Made by a program: the position numbers and the translations under genes. Under the pieces are notes generated by a model that saw only the letters and a list, made by a program, of their open reading frames with translations, was not told the DNA's origin and searched no databases. Positions 5,975 through 34,509 of a DNA stretch of 35,750 bases are shown one piece after another. The stretch comes from a virus (taxonomy: Duplodnaviria > Heunggongvirae > Uroviricota > Caudoviricetes), in IMG/VR virus record IMGVR_UViG_2698536335_000014, positions 1 through 35,750 of that record. One strand, written 5' to 3'. Positions within the stretch are counted from its first letter, which is position 1. Every line of letters begins with the position of its first letter.

Positions 5975-7147
5975 TTACGCGCTGACCTGGCTGGCGAAAT
6001 TCACCAGGTACTGATCGGTGATGCGCTGACGCAGCATCAGGTTTTCAAGTGGCGGCACTGGCGTGTAGTCGTAGTCGATGGTGAGTTTTCCGGCTTTCAG
6101 CGTGTCTTTGTCGTTCACCGACTCATCCAGCCAGCAATCACCACCAATGAGATAGCCCTGACTGACCAGGCTGCGCATTTTGGCGCGGATACCTTCGATA
6201 ATGTCGCGGGCCAGCGACGGGTTAAGCGGTTTATCCACCGCCCACATGTGTGCTTCTGCCATCGTGTCCATCAGCACCTGCGCCGTGCGGGTGTAGTTTT
6301 CGAAGGCAAAGAGCGGGTCATCACTCAGGCAGCGGGAACCCCAGAAGCGGAAACCGTCTTTACGCACAAGCGTGGTGACGTCGTTCTGGTTCAGCAGACC
6401 TGCATCGGTTGCCGGGTCCTGCAGATCCCAGAACACATCTGCAGAAATTCCGGTGACACCGTTCACGCCCACGTTGGACAGGCTTTTGTGCCATCCGGTC
6501 TGCTCGTCAATTTTGGCGCGCAGACCAAGCGCACGGGCGGTGGTATATGCCGTTGCTTCGGCATTCAGCACCGTGTCCCAGCCAGTAAAGTCAGGCCAGA
6601 TCAGCATCCCTTCGCGCTGGCTGAAGTTTTCGCGGTAAGTGATCGCCTCCTGCACTGTCTTGCAGCCATACGCTGACAGGTAAGCAAATCCACGCAGGCT
6701 TTGCGCCACGCTTAGCAACTCAGTAGCTACCGCCTTGGTGTCGTGGCCTGGCACGCCGAGAATGCGCGGTTTAACGCCGAGCTGTGACTGGGCAGATAAC
6801 AGGGCTTTCATACCTGTTTTTTTACCTTCAGCAGTCACTGCGCCGATGATATTGGTCGTGGTTTCGTCTTCCGTTTCACCCTGCGGCACACGCACAACAA
6901 TGGTCACGGGTTTTGCCTGGTCAGCGATGGCATCCAGCGAACGGGCCAGAGTACCTGACTCACCCGCTTTACCGCTGGCAGTCAGCACATCAGTGATCAG
7001 CACGGGTTTATTAAGAGGAAACATTTTTGCATCGGCATCATCGCCCGTGCAGACCATACCCACGATGGCGGTGCTCACCGTGGTAATGGATCGAGTGCCT
7101 TCGTTGACTTCAACAACGCGCACCCCGTGGTGGTAATCCTGAGCCAT
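5975..7147 (-). CDS. FI: contractile tail sheath protein gpFI
   Basis: 390-aa ORF, ATG start, P2 FI-like. Confidence 0.9.
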
Positions 7148-7223
7148 AGTGGCGAACCTCCTGATTGGATTAGGCTTCGCCCTATGTTGAAGTGATTGTG
7201 CCTGACAAACAGCTAAGCGCAGT

Positions 7224-7241
7224 TGTACCGTTATTCACACA
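7224..7241 (-). promoter_or_regulatory. candidate Ogr-dependent late promoter element upstream of FI (TGT-N12-ACA)
   Basis: TGTACCGTTATTCACACA centred about 85 bp upstream of the FI ATG; near-identical to the element upstream of O (TGTACCGACAACCACACA). Confidence 0.5.
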
Positions 7242-7289
7242 AAATGACGGTATTTGTCTGCTTTCAGGGATAATCAAAATAAAGCTGAT

Positions 7290-7862
7290 TCAGGGAGATT
7301 TATTGCTCTTATTTGCCGGAAATTTTCGATAAATGGTAGAAACGCCTACATCAAAAATCAGTGCAATACGCTGTCTTGATTCTCCGGCCTCGAGTAAACG
7401 CCCAATCTGTGCCCACTGTTCGCTGGTCAACTTAGGACGGCGTCCACCTACTCTGCCCTTAGCACGAGCTGCAGCCAGCCCCGCCCTGGTACGTTCAACT
7501 ATCAGTTCGCGTTCCATTTCAGCCAGGGCACCCATGACATGAAAAAAGAAACGGCCCATTGGGGTGCTGGTATCAATACTGTCAGTCAGGCTTCGGAAAT
7601 TCACGCCACGCTGGCGCAGCTCTTCTATCAGCGTAACAAGATGCCGCATACTGCGCCCCAGTCTGTCCAGCTTCCAGACAACCAGCGTGTCTCCTGCCGA
7701 TAGTGTCCTGAGCAGCTTTTTCAGCCCCGGTCTGTCGGACTTGGTGCCACTGATTTTATCCTCAAAAATCCGCTCACATCCCGCACAGTTCAGTGCATTG
7801 CGTTGCAAATCGGTGTTCTGGTCATTTGTTGACACGCGTACATAGCCAATAAGCATGATCAT
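7290..7862 (-). CDS. serine DNA invertase (Hin/Gin/Cin/Pin family), copy 1
   Basis: 190 aa; N-terminal resolvase catalytic domain (GYVRVSTNDQ with catalytic Ser) and C-terminal HTH; ATG start. Confidence 0.9.
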   Translation of the reverse strand: MIMLIGYVRVSTNDQNTDLQRNALNCAGCERIFEDKISGTKSDRPGLKKLLRTLSAGDTLVVWKLDRLGRSMRHLVTLIEELRQRGVNFRSLTDSIDTSTPMGRFFFHVMGALAEMERELIVERTRAGLAAARAKGRVGGRRPKLTSEQWAQIGRLLEAGESRQRIALIFDVGVSTIYRKFPANKSNKSP

Positions 7863-7911
7863 CCCCCTGAATAAAAACCGGAGATGATGCCAGTTAGCCG
7901 TTATCTCTGCA

Positions 7912-7937
7912 TTTTCATAAACGTTGGTTTGGGAGAA
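7912..7937. other. invertase crossover site 1 (hix/gix/cix-like)
   Basis: TTTTCATAAACGTTGGTTTGGGAGAA, about 50 bp upstream of the invertase start; inverted relative to sites 2 and 3; imperfect dyad of the TTCTCCTAAACCAAGG type. Confidence 0.6.
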
Positions 7938-8285
7938 GCGGCGAAAAGGGATGTGGGCACAGGAGAAAATCAGATACCGGATATGTCATCCTGGAAAAGA
8001 AATCCGAGTTCTAATCGCTGGAGAAAATTGCCTGATGGAACCATCATTCAAATGGGAATATCAGCATCAGGGCCATTAGGCTCACCTGTAAATATCACCC
8101 TGCCGATATCTTTCAGCAATACCAATTATTGTGTTGTTGCATCGTACGATAATGCACGGTCAGGTGTGTCAACAATGGTTAGTTTTGCAGCATTACCTGT
8201 TTCACCATCGCAATTTTCCCTGATGTCATCTGTGACTGAGCAAGGAATAAATCCTTTTGCTTACTGGATTGCTTTTGGAGATTGA
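7938..8285 (+). CDS. alternative tail-fibre C-terminal variable segment (Sv'-like), no start of its own
   Basis: Open frame runs through site 1 (..GLGE|AAKRD..) in the same phase as H at site 3 (..GLGE|GSALP..); it would fuse to the H constant part after inversion. Confidence 0.55.
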   Translation, partial: AAKRDVGTGENQIPDMSSWKRNPSSNRWRKLPDGTIIQMGISASGPLGSPVNITLPISFSNTNYCVVASYDNARSGVSTMVSFAALPVSPSQFSLMSSVTEQGINPFAYWIAFGD

Positions 8286-9282: not shown

Positions 9283-9779
9283 CAGGCAGCTCTCACGATA
9301 TAATTAAAGGCAATGTTACGAGGACGGTTTTCGTTTGCAGTTGGAACAATTCTTGAAGCATCAAGGCCAATCACTTTTGGGTAAACAGCGCCATCTGTTC
9401 TTTCAGTCACCATACTTCTGATTAAGGAGAAATAACTATTGTTCGTTGAGGGATTCAAAGGCACCACTGCCCCCTTAAACGAGCCTACTGATTCCCATAT
9501 TGAATAATTTTCGGTGTTTACAGTCTTGAACTCACCATAGATATTACGTATGGCATCGCCCTGAGCGGATAATATTGCCCTCCCCGTATCCATACCACGT
9601 CCGTCATCCCAGCCACGAATAAACTCACCACGTAAATCAGGCAATTTATTTGTCGGGTAAGCCTTTGCCAGTTCTGGGTATTCTTCAGCAGAAAAAGCTG
9701 CTCCGTTGCATTTTAGCCAGCCTGTTGGCGGAGTGGCTGAGGGCCACGGAACAGGTACGCCAACAGGCAATGCTGAGCC
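9282..9779 (-). CDS. tail-fibre C-terminal variable segment A, copy inside the invertible segment (no start of its own)
   Basis: Identical to the C-terminal 166 aa of H (10979-12538); bounded upstream by site 2. Confidence 0.6.
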   Translation of the reverse strand, partial: GSALPVGVPVPWPSATPPTGWLKCNGAAFSAEEYPELAKAYPTNKLPDLRGEFIRGWDDGRGMDTGRAILSAQGDAIRNIYGEFKTVNTENYSIWESVGSFKGAVVPLNPSTNNSYFSLIRSMVTERTDGAVYPKVIGLDASRIVPTANENRPRNIAFNYIVRAA

Positions 9780-9805
9780 TTCTCCTAAACCAACGTTTAT
9801 GAAAA
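9780..9805. other. invertase crossover site 2
   Basis: TTCTCCTAAACCAACGTTTATGAAAA; its reverse complement matches site 1 except for one base. Confidence 0.6.
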
Positions 9806-9854
9806 TGCAGAGATAACGGCTAACTGGCATCATCTCCGGTTTTTATTCAGGGGG

Positions 9855-10427
9855 ATGATCATGCTTATTGGCTATGTACGCGTGTCAACAAATGACCAGA
9901 ACACCGATTTGCAACGCAATGCACTGAACTGTGCGGGATGTGAGCGGATTTTTGAGGATAAAATCAGTGGCACCAAGTCCGACAGACCGGGGCTGAAAAA
10001 GCTGCTCAGGACACTATCGGCAGGAGACACGCTGGTTGTCTGGAAGCTGGACAGACTGGGGCGCAGTATGCGGCATCTTGTTACGCTGATAGAAGAGCTG
10101 CGCCAGCGTGGCGTGAATTTCCGAAGCCTGACTGACAGTATTGATACCAGCACCCCAATGGGCCGTTTCTTTTTTCATGTCATGGGTGCCCTGGCTGAAA
10201 TGGAACGCGAACTGATAGTTGAACGTACCAGGGCGGGGCTGGCTGCAGCTCGTGCTAAGGGCAGAGTAGGTGGACGCCGTCCTAAGTTGACCAGCGAACA
10301 GTGGGCACAGATTGGGCGTTTACTCGAGGCCGGAGAATCAAGACAGCGTATTGCACTGATTTTTGATGTAGGCGTTTCTACCATTTATCGAAAATTTCCG
10401 GCAAATAAGAGCAATAAATCTCCCTGA
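9855..10427 (+). CDS. serine DNA invertase, copy 2 (protein identical to copy 1)
   Basis: 190-aa product identical to the 7290-7862 ORF; lies in the inverted duplication. Confidence 0.85.
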   Translation: MIMLIGYVRVSTNDQNTDLQRNALNCAGCERIFEDKISGTKSDRPGLKKLLRTLSAGDTLVVWKLDRLGRSMRHLVTLIEELRQRGVNFRSLTDSIDTSTPMGRFFFHVMGALAEMERELIVERTRAGLAAARAKGRVGGRRPKLTSEQWAQIGRLLEAGESRQRIALIFDVGVSTIYRKFPANKSNKSP

Positions 10428-10569
10428 ATCAGCTTTATTTTGATTATCCCTGAAAGCAGACAAATACCGTCATTTTGTGTGAATAACGGTACAACTGCGC
10501 TTAGCTGTTTGTCAGGCACAATCACTTCAACATAGGGCGAAGCCTAATCCAATCAGGAGGTTCGCCACT

Positions 10570-10691
10570 ATGGCTCAGGATTACCACCACGGGGTGCGCG
10601 TTGTTGAAGTCAACGAAGGCACTCGATCCATTACCACGGTGAGCACCGCCATCGTGGGTATGGTCTGCACGGGCGATGATGCCGATGCAAA
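10570..10691 (+). pseudogene. duplicated 5' fragment of FI (first ~40 codons, [17 protein letters not shown]...), truncated
   Basis: Exact inverted copy of the FI start region; ends at a breakpoint at 10691/10692. Confidence 0.75.
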
Positions 10692-23784: not shown

Positions 23785-23818
23785 CTCTCAAATAGCTGAA
23801 TAAGCCCGCAAAAGCTAA

Positions 23819-23840
23819 CCTATAGATCAGGGTCTATAGG
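23819..23840. terminator. candidate bidirectional hairpin terminator between convergent Q and the cargo operon
   Basis: cctataga-tcaggg-tctatagg: 8-bp perfect stem, 6-nt loop, followed by TTTAT; overlaps the stop codon of the 215-aa ORF. Confidence 0.35.
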
Positions 23841-24467
23841 TTTATGATGTAATGATACAGGATAATGCACAACTTGATAATCCAGCTTACTTACAGTATG
23901 AAGGTGCTGACTATAAAAAACCAAGGGGTTTTTTGGGCAATCAATAATATTAACGGATTTACAAGCATGAATCCTAGGTGCATTCTTTGATAAGAATGTT
24001 TTCCATGAATCCATCATGTCAGAACAGGAAGCGTTTTTCGTATAAATAATTAAACCACCCGAAGAGCTATTTATAGTCCCAGTACTATACCGCTCGGTAA
24101 GTTGTGCATAACCTTTAAAAAGATATAAATATGAAGAATGTTTTTTAGCTTCCCCATGCCAGATATAATCTGCAAGGGTAATAGATATATCACAATGTCC
24201 TCTCTGGTTCTTCTCGTGACTGGCTTCGAGCCCCAGATATCTATTTTCAATATACGAAAGCAAATATAGAGTTAACTGATCTTCAGAGAGATCAAAGTTA
24301 ATTTTATTGCCATTTTGCTCTAATTTACTTACAGCGTAATCCAGCTCCTTTCGAACAAGACTGTTGAAATTAGAATAGGACTCCAACGCAAATTGAATCC
24401 TTTGAATGGCAAAGTGAACCTTCTGCAAATGAAAGTTTTTCTCCAAATCATCCAGACTTGTAAGCAT
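23820..24467 (-). CDS. hypothetical protein, third gene of the AT-rich cargo operon
   Basis: 215 aa, ATG start overlapping the upstream stop (translational coupling); no motif I recognise. Confidence 0.7.
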   Translation of the reverse strand: MLTSLDDLEKNFHLQKVHFAIQRIQFALESYSNFNSLVRKELDYAVSKLEQNGNKINFDLSEDQLTLYLLSYIENRYLGLEASHEKNQRGHCDISITLADYIWHGEAKKHSSYLYLFKGYAQLTERYSTGTINSSSGGLIIYTKNASCSDMMDSWKTFLSKNAPRIHACKSVNIIDCPKNPLVFYSQHLHTVSKLDYQVVHYPVSLHHKPIDPDL

Positions 24468-24895
24468 TAGTACGCCCCTTCCTTTGTGAAATTAATAACT
24501 GTAAAGAAAGGAAATACATATTTTTTGTAGTCTGGCACAATCTCACCAGTATATGGATGCTCTAAACCTTGATTATCTTCAGCATCAATCACGTCCGCAA
24601 TGCTTATATTAACTGGATCGAAACCATCGTCTATAAATTGATAGTTTAATTTCAAAAAATTAACTTTTGGATTACACAAAACTTGGATAGCCAAGTAAAT
24701 ATCATGCTCATCCACTTTAGCGCCCCCCTTATTCGAAATCGCTATATCAAATAAAAGGTTATAACTAATGAATATATTAGGAGAGCGAGCTGCTAACTTT
24801 GCAAGTTTTTCATAAAACATGCACGCCAAAACTCCCACTTCTGGGCGTTCTGAGCATATGTCTTGTATAGTCTTTGCCAAGTTAGCATCCTTCAT
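24467..24895 (-). CDS. hypothetical protein, second gene of the AT-rich cargo operon
   Basis: 142 aa, ATG start 12 bp downstream of the first gene; no motif I recognise. Confidence 0.7.
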   Translation of the reverse strand: MKDANLAKTIQDICSERPEVGVLACMFYEKLAKLAARSPNIFISYNLLFDIAISNKGGAKVDEHDIYLAIQVLCNPKVNFLKLNYQFIDDGFDPVNISIADVIDAEDNQGLEHPYTGEIVPDYKKYVFPFFTVINFTKEGAY

Positions 24896-24907
24896 TTTTG
24901 TCTCCAG

Positions 24908-26014
24908 CTATAGTATCAGCTTCGTAAGCGTTTCGAAATCATCACGAGAGATACATTTACTAAGTATAGCAAAATTCACTGGTGAACCAGAGCTTCCACT
25001 AAGGTACCGTCTTAGCGTTCCTGGTATAGTAAGTTCTACATTGTCCGCTAACTGTAGTAAAGGATTTGTTCGCTCAACCCTGATGCCTATCCTATAAAGT
25101 CCGATATTGCCTACGGCTTTAATACCTTCTTGATTGAAGATATCTTGTCTCAAATCTTTAGTGGAGTCAGTTTTCCTTTCCTTATGTGTTGTCCCTTCAG
25201 GGGTAAGGAATGAAAGCTCAAAAACTTTATAATTAAGAGTTGAGTATGGTTTTTGATCTTGCTTAAAGATTGGTTCAATCAAGGGAAAGAAATCTCTTTC
25301 TTTTGATGCAAACTCAGCACCTATAATATTATAAAGTTCTCTTACTACAGTACTCTTTGCAAACAAGACGCTCTCACCTATTGTATTAATACCTGCATCT
25401 ATCAAAATAGAGATAGTAGAGTTGGTCTTATTAAAAATGCACACATCAAAACATTGATGCTTTTCTTTTTTAGTAGCAATGATCTCTTCGTAGCCACTGT
25501 ACTGCGGTAAACTTTTAGGCGAAATCCGCTCTCTAATTTTTTGCTCTCTAACGGAACTAAATAGAGCTAAAGCCTGATTATTGCTCTCAGAATAATGAAC
25601 TAAGTTTATTTTATTCTTCCCCGACGCATTAATTTCCTGCTCAGAAAGGATTACATCTGAGGCGACAGAAGGCTGTTCAGATAAATCCCACTTTAATTTC
25701 ATAGCCTTTGTTAGCGAGGAAATTATTTGGTTGTCTACTGATAAACAAAAAAAAGCTTTATCACCGTAGACCAATTGACCAAATATTAAATTATTTACAG
25801 ACCTTATGATATCATTAAATTTATTTAAATTCTTTTCCTTTAATTCTGTTAATTCTTCCAGTATTTTTCCATGAGTAGCATCTCTACCTTTACCACGAGC
25901 TAATCCAAGAGCTGAAATAACAGGTTTTGCCACGTTCCATGGAAATCTCGTGATTAGTGTCAAAATGGATTTCATTTCTGCTTCACTAAGTACTACTGGG
26001 ACATTTCCTGTCAT
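24908..26014 (-). CDS. hypothetical protein, first gene of the AT-rich cargo operon
   Basis: Track ORF starts at GTG 26041; first ATG at 26014 (MTGNVPV..); about 370 aa; no Walker A, HEPN or other motif I recognise. Confidence 0.7.
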   Translation of the reverse strand: MTGNVPVVLSEAEMKSILTLITRFPWNVAKPVISALGLARGKGRDATHGKILEELTELKEKNLNKFNDIIRSVNNLIFGQLVYGDKAFFCLSVDNQIISSLTKAMKLKWDLSEQPSVASDVILSEQEINASGKNKINLVHYSESNNQALALFSSVREQKIRERISPKSLPQYSGYEEIIATKKEKHQCFDVCIFNKTNSTISILIDAGINTIGESVLFAKSTVVRELYNIIGAEFASKERDFFPLIEPIFKQDQKPYSTLNYKVFELSFLTPEGTTHKERKTDSTKDLRQDIFNQEGIKAVGNIGLYRIGIRVERTNPLLQLADNVELTIPGTLRRYLSGSSGSPVNFAILSKCISRDDFETLTKLIL

Positions 26015-26157
26015 CTTAATTACCTGTTGAAATTGCAACACAAGGTCGTCTTCGGGAGATCAATGGGAGTATTCCAATAACTTACCCAGGTATAGGAGTG
26101 CTTTCAAGTCTAAGACTATCTTCTGTCTAACAGCGCATGTTTTCATCTAAGCGCGCG

Positions 26158-26176
26158 CTCGTATCCCCGCCACGCC
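26158..26176 (-). other. candidate cos cohesive-end sequence
   Basis: Minus strand reads GGCGTGGCGGGGATACGAG; the first 13 nt match the GC-rich 19-nt cohesive end of 186/P2 as I recall it (GGCGTGGCGGGGAAAGCAT / GGCGAGGCGGGGAAAGCAC); sits in a 416-bp non-coding gap. Confidence 0.45.
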
Positions 26177-26457
26177 TGCCCGCTTTATGTAGTGGTTTTC
26201 ATGCACCTGCATGACATGAGTAAAAGCCCGCCGGTTCTGGCAGGTCTCTGCAAAAACGAGCCTCAATTGATCATGCGATTTCATGCAGCATAGTCATGCA
26301 CAGCCAAGGGAAGCGTAAATCCGTATCAGAATGACCGCTGAAAAGCGAATCATAAGGGTTTACAAAGATGAAACTCCGCTGTGAGCGAAAAGCGGACGTT
26401 GGAAGTTTAAAACTCGCGAACTACTCAGCGTCCATTGATGCGTATTGTGTAACGTGA

Positions 26458-27102
26458 TTAACCACAGATGATATTGAAACGTTCTCCGGAAATCTTGACC
26501 ATAATGTCAGACAGTTTGCTGACGGCATGGGCTTCAGATGATCCCAGAGCGTCAGGCTGAACAGCTATTACCGAAGCTCCACTTGCCAGCCCTGCTTTTA
26601 TACCCGCAGATGCATCCTCAAATACCACGCATTCACCAGGCTCAAGGCCCAAAGCCAAAGCTGCTTTGATGTAACCCTCGGGACTTGGTTTTCCCGTCAT
26701 TACATCTTCTGCACACACCATTACTATGGGTAAGGGGAGATTAGCCGCTTTCATCCTGTTTTCGGCAAGCATTCTGCCTGCAGAAGTGACAAGTGCCCAG
26801 CTATCCGGTGGCAGTTTTGATAAGAGTGCAGCGGCCCCTTTTACTTCAGTAACGCCTTCTGTCGTGTTGATTTCAACCTCTTCGAGTGAGGCCGCGATTT
26901 TATTGGTTTTCTCACCTGCACCAATAAAATGCGTTAGTGTATCAATCGTTTGCCGCCCGTGTGCGTAAGCAATCACAGCCTGAGAATCAAGACCGTATTC
27001 TGCACAAAAATCTCTCCAGACGCTTTCCACTACGGCTGTTGAATCAACCAGCGTACCGTCCATATCGAATAAAAAACCCTTAGCGTTGAATATCATTGCC
27101 AT
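26458..27102 (-). CDS. HAD-superfamily phosphatase (YfbT-like sugar phosphatase / beta-phosphoglucomutase family)
   Basis: 214 aa; N-terminal FDMDGTLVDS motif (DxDGT) and conserved C-terminal E-D-A-G motif; resembles E. coli YfbT as I recall it. Confidence 0.8.
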   Translation of the reverse strand: MAMIFNAKGFLFDMDGTLVDSTAVVESVWRDFCAEYGLDSQAVIAYAHGRQTIDTLTHFIGAGEKTNKIAASLEEVEINTTEGVTEVKGAAALLSKLPPDSWALVTSAGRMLAENRMKAANLPLPIVMVCAEDVMTGKPSPEGYIKAALALGLEPGECVVFEDASAGIKAGLASGASVIAVQPDALGSSEAHAVSKLSDIMVKISGERFNIICG

Positions 27103-27125
27103 TCCTTAATGGTTGCAGAAGAAAG

Positions 27126-27764
27126 TTAATCAAACCATGTTTTTTCATCACCTTTCGCTACTCTCAGGCTGACAGCAATCTGCTCAGGCACAATTCTTGA
27201 AAGCGACAATTCAGGCAGGTCGTTGACATCAAAAAAATCAGCATCGAGTGACTCATGGCTGATTGACAGGCTGCCACCTACTTCTTCACAGAGAAAAATC
27301 AGCTTGTAAACATGCCAGGGTAAAGGCGGATGGCCGTGAAGATTACGATCCCAAACTCCCAATAGTTTAGTCACTCTGACTTTTAATCCGGTTTCTTCTT
27401 CGACCTCTCGACGCACAGCTTCAGAAGGTGTATCTCCAACATCTGCCCATCCGCCAGGAAGACTCCATAATCCATCTGCAGCCTCTTTCACCATCAGAAT
27501 ACGATTATTACGCAGGATAAACGCACGCACATCTGTTTTGGGCGTCGCGTAACCCGTTTCCGATACATGAAACAAATCATTGCGGCTAATATCAAACTGC
27601 GAACTCAGCAGTCCAGCGGCAATTTCACGCAAGGCTTCATAGCGTTCCTTGTCAAAGACGTCTTTTGAATAGGTCAGGCCTGACTGCGCGAGGGCCTTTA
27701 GTCTCTGGGCAACAAAAATAAGCTTTTCTTGGGTCAACACTTCAGACATGTTTTTCATCTTCAT
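27126..27764 (-). CDS. NUDIX hydrolase
   Basis: 212 aa; Nudix box GGWADVGDTPSEAVRREVEEETGL (GX5EX7REUXEEXGU pattern). Confidence 0.85.
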   Translation of the reverse strand: MKMKNMSEVLTQEKLIFVAQRLKALAQSGLTYSKDVFDKERYEALREIAAGLLSSQFDISRNDLFHVSETGYATPKTDVRAFILRNNRILMVKEAADGLWSLPGGWADVGDTPSEAVRREVEEETGLKVRVTKLLGVWDRNLHGHPPLPWHVYKLIFLCEEVGGSLSISHESLDADFFDVNDLPELSLSRIVPEQIAVSLRVAKGDEKTWFD

Positions 27765-27840
27765 TTATGTATTCAGAGTTCCTGTTAAGGATACTGCTCA
27801 ATTCAATGAAGAATAACAAATGCATCTGGCACCTGCTATG

Positions 27841-27862
27841 TCCGCTTCTGGCACAAAGCGGA
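27841..27862. terminator. possible hairpin downstream of the DinI-like gene
   Basis: tccgctt-ctggcaca-aagcgga: 7-bp stem; no clear U-tract. Confidence 0.25.
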
Positions 27863-27951
27863 CGATCATTTATCAAAATGACCGCCCACCTTATTTCACT
27901 CGTTGTCCAAACTAACCTCCATCAGAATAAATTCTCTTGGGGCAACGTTTC

Positions 27952-28185
27952 TTAATGCAGCCAGCTGTCGTCTTCCCACACCTTCTGCATAATTTTCATC
28001 ACTTGTTTTCTTTCTTCGTCCAGTTGCAGTCCTGTCAGTTCCACACCGTTAGAGCTACCTTTGCGGATGCGAATTACCGTTTTGGGATACAGGGGGCGCA
28101 GATTGCGGTAAAGCTCGGATTCAAGGGCGTCCAGGATAGACTGGCTAATCTTCTGCTCTTTATCGATCATTATTTCAATGCGCAT
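27952..28185 (-). CDS. DinI-family protein (Tum C-terminal-domain-like)
   Basis: ATG 28185 with SD gaggtg; MRIEIMIDK...WEDDSWL resembles E. coli DinI as I recall it (MRIEVTIAK...WESADDWF). Confidence 0.8.
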   Translation of the reverse strand: MRIEIMIDKEQKISQSILDALESELYRNLRPLYPKTVIRIRKGSSNGVELTGLQLDEERKQVMKIMQKVWEDDSWLH

Positions 28186-28195
28186 AAAAGTCACC

Positions 28196-28384
28196 TCAGC
28201 TGATGACATCCATTGAGCGGTTGTATTCGTGGGTTCTGATTTTTGCCATGAGTTCATCTGTTAGTTCAGAAACCCACTGCAGAGCCAGCCCCTTCTCTTC
28301 ATCACTACACTCACTAGCCGCTACAAGCTTAAGAAAAAAATCAATGCGCTGGAGCTTCAAAGACTCCAAAAAATAGTCCTGCAT
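28196..28384 (-). CDS. small SOS-regulated protein (possible Tum-like antirepressor component)
   Basis: 62 aa from ATG 28384 with strong SD aggagg; a LexA box lies 44 bp upstream; first gene of a two-gene operon with the DinI-like gene. Confidence 0.5.
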   Translation of the reverse strand: MQDYFLESLKLQRIDFFLKLVAASECSDEEKGLALQWVSELTDELMAKIRTHEYNRSMDVIS

Positions 28385-28427
28385 CTTTCCTCCTATGACA
28401 CCACAAGAAATACTGTATGTATAACCA

Positions 28428-28443
28428 CTGTTTATATTTACAG
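28428..28443. promoter_or_regulatory. LexA box (SOS operator)
   Basis: CTGTTTATATTTACAG fits CTGT-N8-ACAG with an AT-rich spacer, upstream of the 62-aa/DinI-like operon. Confidence 0.6.
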
Positions 28444-28537
28444 TATATAATAATCTTACTGATGTAAAACGTTTTTTTACGTTCATCAGCCTGATATGCC
28501 TGGTATTATTAAGAGCACGAATTGTTAACCCGCGTAA

Positions 28538-30952
28538 TTAATACAGATCCCGCCACTTATCATCTTCCTGCAAACGCTGGTTCCGATAGAAGATACGCAG
28601 GCCTGATCCTGACGGAATACTGCCACCGCGAAGGAGTAAATCGACCTCTTTCTCGCTGCCGTCAAATCCTCTGGACTTCAGTTCATAGACAAGCTGCTGT
28701 CGCTGATGGTCTGTAATTCGCTGTTTGTAGTCTTTACGCCGTTTCGGTTTCACCAGGCGTAATCTTGCTGTCAGTTCCCGGCGCTCTTTTTTGCTCATAC
28801 TGTGCAGGTAATCGTGCAACTCCTTGTCATTCATACGGGTGATATCCGTTCTGGTATCCCCATCAGCTGATTTGTCTTTCCCTTGTTGGGGCAAATTTTC
28901 AGTAAGGGGACAGTTATTGCCACGAGTCCAAGGGGCGCAAGCGCCCTGGTCGGCTGCCGCCTCCTGAACGTCAACGGCTTTACGAACCATTTTCCACTTC
29001 ACTGCATGAGTGCAGATCTTGCCCTCTGCAATGGGTGACCAGATGCCATAAATACGAATGCCGTGATCGCCATAGGCGGTCGGCTCTTCGTTGATTTCAT
29101 AAGCGGTTCTGATGAGGTGATATTTACGGGGAACCAGTACGCCGCCCTGCTTCATGATGTAGGTGGCAAAACAACCAGCATCAGCAGCAGCCAGGATGGC
29201 ATCAAGGCGCGGGTTATCCAGTACCGGCGCACCTGCTTTTTTGTCCCCCTTTTGCCTTGCCGCCTGACCAGCCAGCAATCGCAGTTCACGGTAAGCCTGA
29301 CGCCCCGGAATGCCAAAGAAGCGGAATTGCTGAACACGATGCAAAGACGCCCAGGCATTCACGTATTCAGCGTTATCACGCAGAGATTTACCCGTTTCCT
29401 TGCTGATCTCGCCAGCCAGACCACGCCCGTCAATGTTCTTACTGATGTATTTCGCTATGTAGCTTGTCGGCGTTCCTTTGCGCGGGTTAATCAGCTCAGA
29501 CTTAAAGCGCGGCCCCGTGTTATTGCCCAGCTCCTCGCGGTCTTCACGGATAGCAAACTTACGCAACAATGCTGTAATGGCGCGGCGGTCTTTTTTGCGC
29601 ATGAAACACAACAGGTGCCAGTGAACGGCGCCGTCGTGATGCGGCTCAGCCACCCGCACGCCATACCAGCGCAACCCGGCTTTGTGCATCGCCTTACGAA
29701 ATGCAGCAAACATACCGACCAGATAATCGCTGCTTTGTCTTACCGTCGCATTTGTCCAGGTCGGGTTGGGCCTGCCGTTATTTAGCGTGGAATGGAAACG
29801 TGACGGACAGGTGATGGTGTAGAAAACGGCGCAGTCACCGCGCATTTCCGCGATAAGCTCCAGACCTTTAACACAGGCCATCATCTCATTGCGGCGATGC
29901 GCAGGGTTGCTGCTGCTGGCGTTTACCACATCCTCCATGTCTAGCGTGTCGCCGTCTTCGTTCACCAGTTCATGAGAACGGAAAAACTCCAGCGACTTAC
30001 GGCGCTGCTCACGTTTATGCAACACGGCTTCATAGCTGACATAGGGAGATGCTTTTTTGCTGACAAGGCAGACAGCACGCAACTGCTCTTCCCGCCATTC
30101 GCAACGCATCTTCCATAATTTCCGATACCACCAGTCGGCGCACAACATACGCGCCAGCGAACCCGGAATGAGTTCATAGGGCACGGGTTTACGGCGGTTT
30201 CTTTTCCGGCGGAGTTGCTCAAACGCAGGCGGGATGACATCCAGACGCAGGGTTTCCGCTGCCACCCTTTCCCATGTATTGCGGATTTCTTCTGGCTTAA
30301 CGTCATCGGTGGCATACAAATCGCCACAAGCGGCATCAAGGCACATACTCATATGCGCAGCTACCAGGGTGGACAGGCGTTTCACCTGATCCTGACTCAT
30401 TTCAGGCAGGATCAGCAGGCCGTCCAGCCCTTCATGGCTTGCCATAAAGCGAAAAGATGCAGACAGCTGACTGTCGCGTACATGCTCCAGTCGTTCCAGA
30501 CATGGCTTAATCGTCTCACGTAAGTAGCGGGAATAAGCCTTTGGCCTGCCCAGGCTGCTGAAGTATTCAATACGTTGCATCAGCGGCTTGCTGATATGGG
30601 AAGGCTGGGCGTTGACGTCCGCCAGAATGACCATATCCGGATTAAAACGCTGCTGCTCATGCGCCAGCTTTGCCCGACTAATGAGCTTATCCTGTTCCAT
30701 TTCGCGCTGGACAGGATCACGGGATTCATTAAAGAAATAACGCTCCCAGACCTGATCACTCAGCGCCTCACGGCGCAGCTGTTCCTGCTCGTTATCGGCA
30801 GCGTACAGAGTGATCAGGTTTGAAAGCGTAGAAACCGGCGCAACTTCCACCGGGTCCAGATAAGGGTTAATGGCCTTTTTCGAGCTGTTCCATGAGAACG
30901 ATGCGGCAGCTTCGTTAAAGCCGCAGCAGTTGTTCATATCGGCATGACTCAT
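28538..30952 (-). CDS. A: replication initiation endonuclease gpA (rolling-circle initiator)
   Basis: 804 aa, ATG start overlapping the dam stop; P2/186 A-like by size and position; ori expected inside the coding region. Confidence 0.85.
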
Positions 30953-32843: not shown

Positions 32844-33353
32844 TCACAGCAAACCAAATGAAGCACCGAGGCCAGTCACGGTATCAACTGCACTCGCCAT
32901 CGCAGGATTAGCCTGTAAACGGGCCTGCAATGAAACAGCCGCCAGCGCCATCAGTCGTGTTACAGAGTTAATGCTGCTGATAGCATCACGACGACCGGCA
33001 CAGGTTTTTACATCGCCAGACACCGCACCTGCAGCAACACGCCCGATCTCTGCGGTTGCACTCATGACGTAATGTGGCAGTTTCTCTTTTGCCACCTCAT
33101 TAATCGGTACACATGGCAGACAATGAATCTGTGCCAGAAAACCATCTACCAGCGTTGAATCTTCAGTCAGATCGGTAAGCAGCCAGATTTCTGGTGCGGT
33201 TAATAAATGAGGCTGAGCTGGGTTCAGCTTGTTCCGCAGAATCTGCACATTCATGCCTGCACGTTCTGCCAGTTGCACCAGATTGTGGCGCAGTGCAAAT
33301 GCACGACAGGCTTCATCAAAATGTGGATGTTTGGAAACTTGGTAATCAAACAT
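32844..33353 (-). CDS. CII-like lysogeny establishment regulator (186 CII family)
   Basis: ATG 33353; about 169 aa, the size and position of 186 CII downstream of apl; assignment by synteny. Confidence 0.55.
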
Positions 33354-33385
33354 GGTCAATGCCTCTGATGTATTTCAGAATCGAA

Positions 33386-33607
33386 CTAATTAAGGTTTAG
33401 ATTGCATTCTGAAAGCGCATCAACGGTCATTGCTGCTATGTTGATCATCACTTTTTCGCGTTTTTTATCTTTGCGCAGACGGTGACGGATAAGGCGTCCA
33501 TCAGCCAACATGTCATTGATGGTATCGATGGATAGCCCTGTCAGCTCGCTATAGCGTTCAATAGTCACATGAGGCGTGGTAAGAGTGATTGAAATGTTAG
33601 GTCTCAT
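33386..33607 (-). CDS. Apl/Cox-like excisionase-type transcriptional regulator
   Basis: 73 aa, first gene of the lytic early operon, divergent from cI. Confidence 0.5.
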
Positions 33608-33726: not shown

Positions 33727-33732
33727 GTGACC

Positions 33733-34302
33733 ATGAATTTGGAGAAAGGCGGACGAGGCGCCATAGAGCGCATGGTAGAAGCTTATGGATTCAAGACTCG
33801 ACAGGCGTTGTGCGATCATTTAGGAATCTCTAAAAGTACACTCGCCACACGCTACATGCGTGACTCATTCCCAGCAGAATGGGTAATCCAGTGCGCCCTT
33901 GAAACAGGCACCTCGCTTAATTGGCTCACAACCGGGCATGGTTCAAAGCAAACTTCAGGTAATACAAATACTATGGAAGTTGCTAAATATGTATTATCTG
34001 ATGGGGCCTTGTGTGAAGACGGTTTTTATATTTTCGATAGAGAATTTCTACCGTCGGCATTCAAGAATCTTTTTGTAATCACAGATAATAATTCTGAATT
34101 TATTTGTGATAAGGAATTTGATGATATACGTGATGGTAAATGGGTAATAAGTATTGATGGCGAAATAACGATCCGTGACATTACTCGTTTACCCGGTGGA
34201 AGAATCTTCGTCGAGGGTGGAAACAGAGCCTTTGAATGTAAGATAGAAGACATTGAAATAATTGGTAAAATTATAAGTTTAACAGTCAAGTATGTTAAAT
34301 AG
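33733..34302 (+). CDS. cI: CI immunity repressor (186 CI type)
   Basis: ATG 33733 with SD ggag (track start is GTG 33727); 189 aa; upstream of int on the same strand. Confidence 0.7.
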   Translation: MNLEKGGRGAIERMVEAYGFKTRQALCDHLGISKSTLATRYMRDSFPAEWVIQCALETGTSLNWLTTGHGSKQTSGNTNTMEVAKYVLSDGALCEDGFYIFDREFLPSAFKNLFVITDNNSEFICDKEFDDIRDGKWVISIDGEITIRDITRLPGGRIFVEGGNRAFECKIEDIEIIGKIISLTVKYVK

Positions 34303-34317
34303 TACCGGGAGGAAATT

Positions 34318-34509
34318 ATGCTTGGTAAGGTATTTTTTGTGGTTTTGTCATGTTCTTTGTTATTAAACCCACTAGCTACCTATGCTAGAAATTATCCCTG
34401 CTCAGGGAAAAAGGGAGGTGTTTCTCACTGTACCTCTGATGGCAAATTCGTTTGCAATGATGGAACTATTAGTAAATCCAAAAAAATCTGTACTAAAAAC
34501 TCACGATAA
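34318..34509 (+). CDS. small secreted cysteine-rich protein (moron in the cI-int operon)
   Basis: 63 aa, ATG with strong SD gggagg; N-terminal signal peptide ([23 protein letters not shown]) then a mature peptide with 5 Cys; AT-rich. Confidence 0.5.

Follow-up and report, generated by a model that had tools for sequence, protein, structure and literature searches.

A likely split tumA-tumB SOS-induction operon in a Fels-2/186-like prophage

The LexA-controlled antirepressor is the textbook alternative to lambda-type repressor cleavage in the induction of prophages. In phage 186, this function belongs to Tum, a LexA-controlled antirepressor of 146 amino acids (aa) that binds the immunity repressor CI and is DinI-like in its second half, antirepressor and DinI sequences being apparently fused (Lemire, Figueroa-Bossi and Bossi 2011, PMC3121763), and p95-tum has been found to mediate the ultraviolet (UV) induction of 186 by sequestration of CI (PMC7708051). 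In Fels-2 and PSP3, tum is split by a stop codon, and in PSP3 it is the upstream gene that carries the antirepressor activity (PMC3121763). The antirepressors GfoA, GftA and FsoA of the Gifsy and Fels-1 prophages, as well as AntC of N15, follow the same logic of a small LexA-repressed antirepressor encoded beside a dinI homologue (PMC3121763). In this study, we have analysed a two-gene locus in the virus record IMGVR_UViG_2698536335_000014 (35,750 nucleotides (nt), the whole of which we call the window), which is entirely a P2/186-like (Peduoviridae) prophage, most probably of Escherichia coli. We consider it likely that this locus is the split tumA-tumB SOS-induction operon of a Fels-2/186-like member of the Peduoviridae, in which the first product, TumA, would inactivate CI. 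Such a system is already known from 186, PSP3 and Fels-2, and one more instance of it is of low significance in itself. The Gifsy/Fels-1-type systems resemble it in that a non-cleavable repressor is inactivated, as we propose for the window, but their gene order is reversed, with the dinI gene first; these phages are lambdoid and have a repressor of another family.

The promoter, the LexA box and the two open reading frames (ORFs) were read straight from the window sequence and are on its minus strand (Table 1). A first-pass annotation of the same DNA had located a LexA-controlled pair of genes at 27952-28443; these coordinates hold, with the correction that the genes run on the minus strand. 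It had also described a perfect CTGT-N8-ACAG box 44 base pairs upstream of a 62-aa ORF, followed after 10 nt by a DinI-family ORF, each ORF having a strong Shine-Dalgarno (SD) sequence. All of these elements are present: 43 nt separate the last base of the core box (28428) from the ATG (28384), which agrees with the distance given, the SD sequences are AGGAGG and GAGGTGA, and the second ORF is assigned to the DinI family by Pfam. This second ORF, of 77 aa, begins with MRIE, exactly as E. coli DinI does. Longer versions of the two ORFs (96 aa from 28486 and 101 aa from 28257) are mechanical extensions and not genes; in the 96-aa version, the promoter and the LexA box would fall inside its own coding sequence.

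Among the known systems, the closest in sequence is Fels-2 of Salmonella LT2 (STM2728 and STM2726.1), whose DNA is 97.6% identical over a stretch that takes in the end of gene A, the promoter and the two genes. Its TumA (STM2728) and DinI are respectively 98% and 99% identical to those of the window, its LexA box is identical, and the genes follow gene A in the same order; Elveevirus/Felsduovirus prophages in both Klebsiella and E. coli also carry this Fels-2-type locus. The cargo genes 3' of it are not the same in Fels-2 and in the window, and the similarity to Fels-2 and to the Klebsiella phages stops at the stop codon of dinI. The position of the module, just 3' of gene A, is also that of tum in 186 and of tumA and tumB in PSP3. 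PSP3 likewise has two cistrons behind a LexA box, and its GenBank record labels tumA 'UV induction of prophage', the downstream gene being a DinI homologue. There are clear differences: the two PSP3 cistrons are 3 nt apart, against 10 nt in the window, the promoter 5' of the box is unrelated in sequence, and the kinship of the TumA proteins is at profile level only. As in the window, the LexA box of 186 lies over a TACTGT -10 hexamer, comes after gene A and is accompanied by a CI of the 186 type. The window TumA corresponds to the N-terminal half of 186 Tum and the DinI-like product to the C-terminal half, but 186 Tum is a single polypeptide of 146 aa whereas the window has two cistrons. The 186 record additionally lists, as a separate product, a DinI-like 'truncated Tum' of 77 aa that starts at an internal GTG.

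The control region has been conserved together with the genes. In 11 Fels-2-type relatives, the box lies 40-48 nt 5' of the start codon, and in the most diverged of them (SopEPhi, ST437phi4.1 and MLG42) the -35 hexamer, the box with a short element downstream, and the SD sequence stand as conserved islands in drifted flanks. ESSI-2, ESSI2_ev040, 186 and PSP3 have a TACTG-N10-CAGT box 18-23 nt 5' of the equivalent gene. In all, such a box precedes the start codon by 18-48 nt in each of the 14 relatives that were examined. The 186 record annotates the LexA site of the SOS promoter p95, where the -10 hexamer is also TACTGT, at the start of the box, and it is by analogy with this annotated promoter that we assigned the one in the window: p95 reads TTCACA, 18 nt, TACTGT, and the window TTTACA, 17 nt, TACTGT. 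Based on this homology and on the literature, we infer LexA binding at 28426..28445 and SOS inducibility of the operon. The predicted LexA site covers the -10 hexamer, so that LexA should occlude RNA polymerase. Just 3' of the LexA box (28400-28425 in the window), all Fels-2-type relatives also share a conserved element, GGTTAT-N4-TACAG, which is not a second CTG-N10-CAG box; a similar motif, ACATACAG, lies 5' of the p95 -35 hexamer in 186 (6985-7000) and in PSP3 (7040-7055).

The 62-aa product of the first cistron is very probably a TumA-like antirepressor and the trigger of induction, as suggested by a comparison of sequence profiles. When distant members of its family (27 sequences) were compared using hhalign with a family made of the N-terminal half of 186 Tum and PSP3 TumA (18 sequences), the two matched with a probability of 96.2% and an E value of 2.1e-9 over 52 columns. 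The aligned core includes R13, C26 and an A-L..[IV].E[LI] motif, in the overall pattern R-[IV]-[ED] ... C ... AL..[IV].E[LI]. The family is small, its short proteins forming 66 clusters at 50% identity, and none of its listed members has the length of a DinI fusion. The AlphaFold (AF2) model is a two-helix hairpin (H2-23 and H28-61; predicted local distance difference test score, pLDDT, 85.8) whose loop contains the conserved cysteine. A Foldseek search of this model against BFVD returned nothing below an E value of 0.4 and was uninformative, because a two-helix hairpin is too generic a fold. In ESSI-2 and ESSI2_ev040, the LexA-boxed tumA-like gene has been kept and no dinI-like gene is found downstream; the role of the tumA-like gene in phages of this type therefore cannot depend on DinI. 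We also observed that distant TumA homologues share a C-terminal tail of the approximate form K-N-P-Q-x-G-G-x-x-G-G-x-x-[LF]-Q, which the window protein does not have; the tail-bearing homologues include P0147, P0149, P0152, P0155, P0172, P0177, P0181, ESSI-2 and ESSI2_ev040.

The second cistron belongs to the same Pfam family as the chromosomal DinI of E. coli, with a match to DinI (PF06183) that spans profile positions 1-63 of 63 (E 1.3e-22; 80.4 bits against a cut-off of 24.2), and its alignment with the solved structure of E. coli DinI (1ghh; E 3.6e-6) is full-length. Its product is 77% identical to PSP3 TumB and 41% identical to residues 70-146 of 186 Tum, and its match to the phrog_189 profile covers positions 71-148 out of 151. 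The first-pass annotation had said that the product of 186 tum has DinI-like homology, which is true of the second half of Tum but not of its first half. With the NCBIfam DinI equivalog NF007893, the score is 42 bits, below the cut-off of 111 (the C-terminal half of 186 Tum scores 44.5 bits), and we therefore regard the protein as a phage DinI-like paralogue and not as the orthologue of host DinI. It probably serves as an accessory and acts on RecA filaments. An accessory role fits with the dinI-less ESSI-2 and ESSI2_ev040, and also with the Gifsy prophages, in which non-polar dinI deletions left induction unaffected (PMC3121763). Taken together, the profile comparison, the DinI match, the genomic position, the promoter and the literature on Fels-2 and PSP3 agree with the earlier suggestion that the equivalent of 186 tum appears here as two cistrons.

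The presumed target of TumA is encoded in the same prophage. The window CI matches Phage_CI_repr (E 2.8e-33) and Phage_CI_C (E 2.7e-27) and is 33% identical to 186 CI. Its match to Peptidase_S24 is below threshold (16 bits against a cut-off of 23), from which it follows that SOS induction would need an antirepressor. The genes of the window that are relevant here comprise the tail and head genes, P and Q (terminase, portal), the cargo, the module, gene A, a Dam methylase gene, cII, an Apl/Cox-like gene, cI and int. The tum module is present in 1,125 of 5,426 complete E. coli genomes (21%) and the immunity region of the window in 658 of them; in E. coli, the two genes of the module are annotated as 'hypothetical protein' and 'DinI-like family protein'.

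Several points weigh against reading the locus as a tumA-tumB operon, and they concern its promoter, its first product and the repressor. The 16-nt core pattern of the box is weak when taken alone, with 0.51 matches expected per window and at least one match in 41 of 100 shuffled sequences. A generic sigma-70 scan of 27000..29000 reported no promoter, the reason being that the -10 hexamer matches the consensus at 3 of 6 positions. With regard to the 62-aa protein, pairwise BLASTP gave no alignment with either 186 Tum or PSP3 TumA. BLASTP being negative and the profile match positive, its kinship with the N-terminal half of Tum is remote, and this homology hangs on one profile-profile comparison of short helical proteins. 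The antirepressor result for PSP3 is cited only as a personal communication (Christie) in PMC3121763, and no experiment on the window allele or on a Fels-2-type TumA was found in the searchable literature. Finally, one TumA allele is found together with divergent CI proteins, which is unexpected for a specific inhibitor unless the contact is with a conserved N-terminal domain.

The first two of these points could suggest that CTGT-N8-ACAG is present by chance in AT-rich intergenic DNA and that the ORFs are expressed constitutively or by early lytic read-through from gene A. We find this highly improbable. CTGT-N8-ACAG occurs a single time in the window, and motif scoring, which the first-pass annotation had proposed as a check, gave a sharper result: when the 20-nt consensus TACTGTATATATATACAGTA was searched with up to three mismatches, the only match in the window was at 28426..28445 (three mismatches), and none was obtained in 100 shuffles. 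Moreover, the box stands out as a conserved island in diverged relatives, and all the relatives examined have it at the orthologous position, the characterised p95 of 186 among them. Neither the core pattern nor the 20-nt consensus detected a second LexA box in the window.

The points on the 62-aa protein bear on another possibility, namely that the operon is LexA-controlled but that this protein is not an antirepressor. It could instead be a partner or regulator of DinI, or an SOS accessory (for example a moron that modulates host RecA or the SOS response), with induction proceeding by another route. The protein has no match in Pfam, NCBIfam or PDB sequences, PHROGs place it in phrog_698 ('unknown function') and returned only families of unknown function, and a tblastn search with it against 50,697 phage records reached neither 186 nor PSP3. 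The lack of pairwise similarity to their proteins, and the fact that the same TumA allele accompanies CI proteins that are 37-54% identical to that of the window, would also suit this explanation. Nevertheless, we consider it unlikely. The profile match to the N-terminal half of Tum is significant and spans the conserved core, and the genomic position and promoter architecture equal those of tum and tumA. A partnership with DinI is opposed by the ESSI-2-type phages, which retain the LexA-boxed gene and no dinI, while induction by another route is opposed by the sub-threshold Peptidase_S24 match of CI, which makes an antirepressor necessary, and by the uniqueness of the LexA box in the window. 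A TumA-like antirepressor remains our preferred reading of the first cistron.

It could also be argued that the module is a remnant in decay, which is conserved only because its bearers share a recent ancestor and whose products are no longer functional. Most of the E. coli and Klebsiella matches are more than 95% identical, so that identity alone is no proof of constraint. Purifying selection on both short ORFs is nevertheless strong: against relatives at a synonymous divergence (dS) of about 1, the ratio of nonsynonymous to synonymous divergence (dN/dS) is 0.05-0.08 (0.07-0.08 for tumA and 0.05-0.08 for the dinI-like gene). This ratio is raised (0.34-0.48) only in comparisons with the prophage 500465-1, which is disrupted by an insertion sequence (IS). 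In the window prophage, gene A, cI, cII, int and the structural genes are intact. We therefore give the remnant explanation very little credence. Escherichia phage 500465-1 itself carries IS21-family genes inside gene A, and the raised dN/dS of its tumA and dinI is consistent with relaxed constraint in a decaying prophage.

Based on these comparisons, a possible course of induction can be proposed. In an undamaged lysogen, host LexA bound to the box over the -10 hexamer would keep the promoter closed. Upon DNA damage, RecA would become active, LexA would undergo self-cleavage and the two-gene transcript would be made. TumA, the 62-aa helical hairpin, would then bind the non-cleavable 186-type CI and block its binding to the operators, an interaction that we propose from homology and from the literature on 186, PSP3 and Fels-2. 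The early lytic promoter would fire, and the prophage would be induced, excise and replicate. The DinI-like TumB would be an accessory in this scheme, probably tuning the strength or the duration of the SOS signal via RecA filaments.

The 3' end of the operon can also be described. The intergenic RNA between 27960 and 27765 folds with a z-score of -4.0, and the second of two hairpins downstream of the dinI-like gene was flagged as terminator-like; transcription may end at these stem-loops. Their U-tracts are short, and some read-through into the downstream NUDIX and HAD hydrolase genes is therefore possible. In 186, the operon runs on into orf97 past a partial terminator, whereas the downstream genes of the window are an unrelated NUDIX and HAD hydrolase cargo. 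A search of 27500..28700 against Rfam gave no match. A structured translational-coupling element over the second SD sequence was considered and dropped, the local hairpin being weak (z -0.5) and no stabler than those of shuffled sequences.

Table 1. Features of the tumA-tumB-like operon and of related genes in the window (minus-strand features of the operon are given from 5' to 3' of their own strand).
Feature	Position	Strand	Remarks
Putative -35 hexamer TTTACA	28468..28463	-	From sequence reading; 17 nt 5' of TACTGT; kept in all 11 Fels-2-type relatives, even where the flanks have drifted
Putative -10 hexamer TACTGT	28445..28440	-	First six bases of the LexA box; invariant in all relatives
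LexA (SOS) box TACTGTAAATATAAACAGTG, 20 nt	28445..28426	-	Core CTGT-N8-ACAG at 28428..28443; predicted from consensus and conservation
Shine-Dalgarno AGGAGG, first cistron	28394..28389	-	4 nt 5' of the ATG at 28384; conserved in relatives
tumA-like gene, 62 aa + stop	28384..28196	-	ATG 28384..28382; TGA 28198..28196; presumed antirepressor
Shine-Dalgarno GAGGTGA, second cistron	28197..28191	-	Overlaps the tumA-like stop codon; 5 nt 5' of the second ATG; possible translational coupling
Intercistronic gap, 10 nt	28195..28186	-	Between the tumA-like TGA and the dinI-like ATG
tumB / dinI-like gene, 77 aa + stop	28185..27952	-	ATG at 28185; Pfam DinI
Two stem-loops 3' of the dinI-like stop	27894..27853 and 27839..27813	-	Candidate terminators, probably partial, for the SOS transcript
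Replication gene A (P2 gpA-like)	28538..30952	-	Direct 5' neighbour; 89% identical to the Fels-2 gpA-like protein, 35% to 186 A
cII	32844..33359		
Apl/Cox-like ORF	33386..33607		
cI, 186-type immunity repressor	33727..34302	+	Phage_CI_repr and Phage_CI_C; presumed TumA target

Upon further comparison of the immunity regions, we also shed light on the divergence of CI in phages that share this module. A comparison of the window with 813R9, Kp4860-7, Kp4845-2, Cartapus and Kp4865-2, five phages from Klebsiella and E. coli, gave identities of mostly 92-100% along the early operon (cII to dinI, by way of A and tumA), with DinI down to 84-87% in Cartapus and Kp4845-2. The CI proteins of these five phages are only 37-54% identical to that of the window, and Apl is replaced in most of them. 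The cI-apl intergenic regions have few 9-mers in common with the window, at most 8 (813R9). The same picture emerges from seven phages whose TumA proteins are at least 98% identical, among which pairs of CI are 36-59% identical, save for one near-identical pair.

This divergence is unevenly spread along the protein. Fels-2 CI is 41% identical to the window CI overall, with 71% identity in the N-terminal domain and 27% in the C-terminal domain, and in the Fels-2-type phages the linker and C-terminal domain are 25-41% identical to those of the window. Across ten phages with a Fels-2-type TumA, 36 of about 65 positions in the N-terminal domain of CI do not vary. The helix-turn-helix region SKST.A.R..RD.FPA.W.IQC.LETG.SL.WL is among them, with invariant residues in S35-R45, F48-Q55 and L58-L67; the CI proteins of 186 and PSP3 differ at most of these invariant positions. 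The DNA-binding domain would be expected to be the variable part of CI, and the opposite is seen. In a set of 14 phages, identity between TumA proteins goes along with identity between CI N-terminal domains (Spearman 0.83, Mantel p ~0.0006), and far less closely with identity between C-terminal domains (Spearman 0.36, p ~0.05). We regard this correlation as a lead and not as a demonstration, because the sample is small and phylogenetically non-independent and because N-terminal domains are generally more conserved. A tentative hypothesis, to which we give somewhat less than an even chance, would be that the Fels-2-type TumA recognises the conserved N-terminal DNA-binding domain of CI, such that one allele could serve many CI variants and cross-induction would be possible.

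Elsewhere in the prophage, a mosaic cargo region (23785-27951) lies between the portal gene Q and the dinI-like gene. Its NUDIX (27126..27764) and HAD (26458..27102) hydrolase genes are 99.5% identical to those of Peduovirus P24C9 and E. coli phage 10W, and the NUDIX protein has a weak PADLOC match to PDC-S07 (E 7e-10); three further genes, whose function is unknown (23820..26041), share 98% identity with Klebsiella phage KP12. The NUDIX and HAD genes are set apart from the dinI-like gene by the two stem-loops and are part of a separately exchanged cargo block; we considered that they may nevertheless be members of the SOS operon, as orf97 is in 186. In the tail-fibre region, a perfect inverted repeat of 913 nt (7026-7938 and 9779-10691, 100% complementary) flanks a segment of 1,840 nt with tail-fibre-region ORFs. 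Each arm holds a complete gene for a 190-aa DNA invertase of Gin/Cin type (Pfam Resolvase and HTH_7), of which Fels-2 has one; the repeat may have arisen by true duplication or from misassembly of an invertible segment. Between cI and int, a 63-aa ORF (34318-34509, plus strand) has a signal-peptide-like N-terminus, several cysteines and no Pfam match; in relatives, this slot is occupied by a DUF2511 protein (PSP3) or by a 'chromosome segregation ATPase' (813R9).

In conclusion, our results emphasize a gene that RefSeq, PHROGs and almost every phage record still annotate as 'hypothetical protein', and for which the profile link to the N-terminal half of Tum would justify the name TumA-like. The contact surface on CI is a testable guess. 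If it is true, evasion of the antirepressor would not be what drives CI C-terminal diversification, and a co-resident or incoming Fels-2-like phage could cross-induce prophages that carry different CI variants, a prediction that would matter for the dynamics of prophages in E. coli, Klebsiella and Salmonella.

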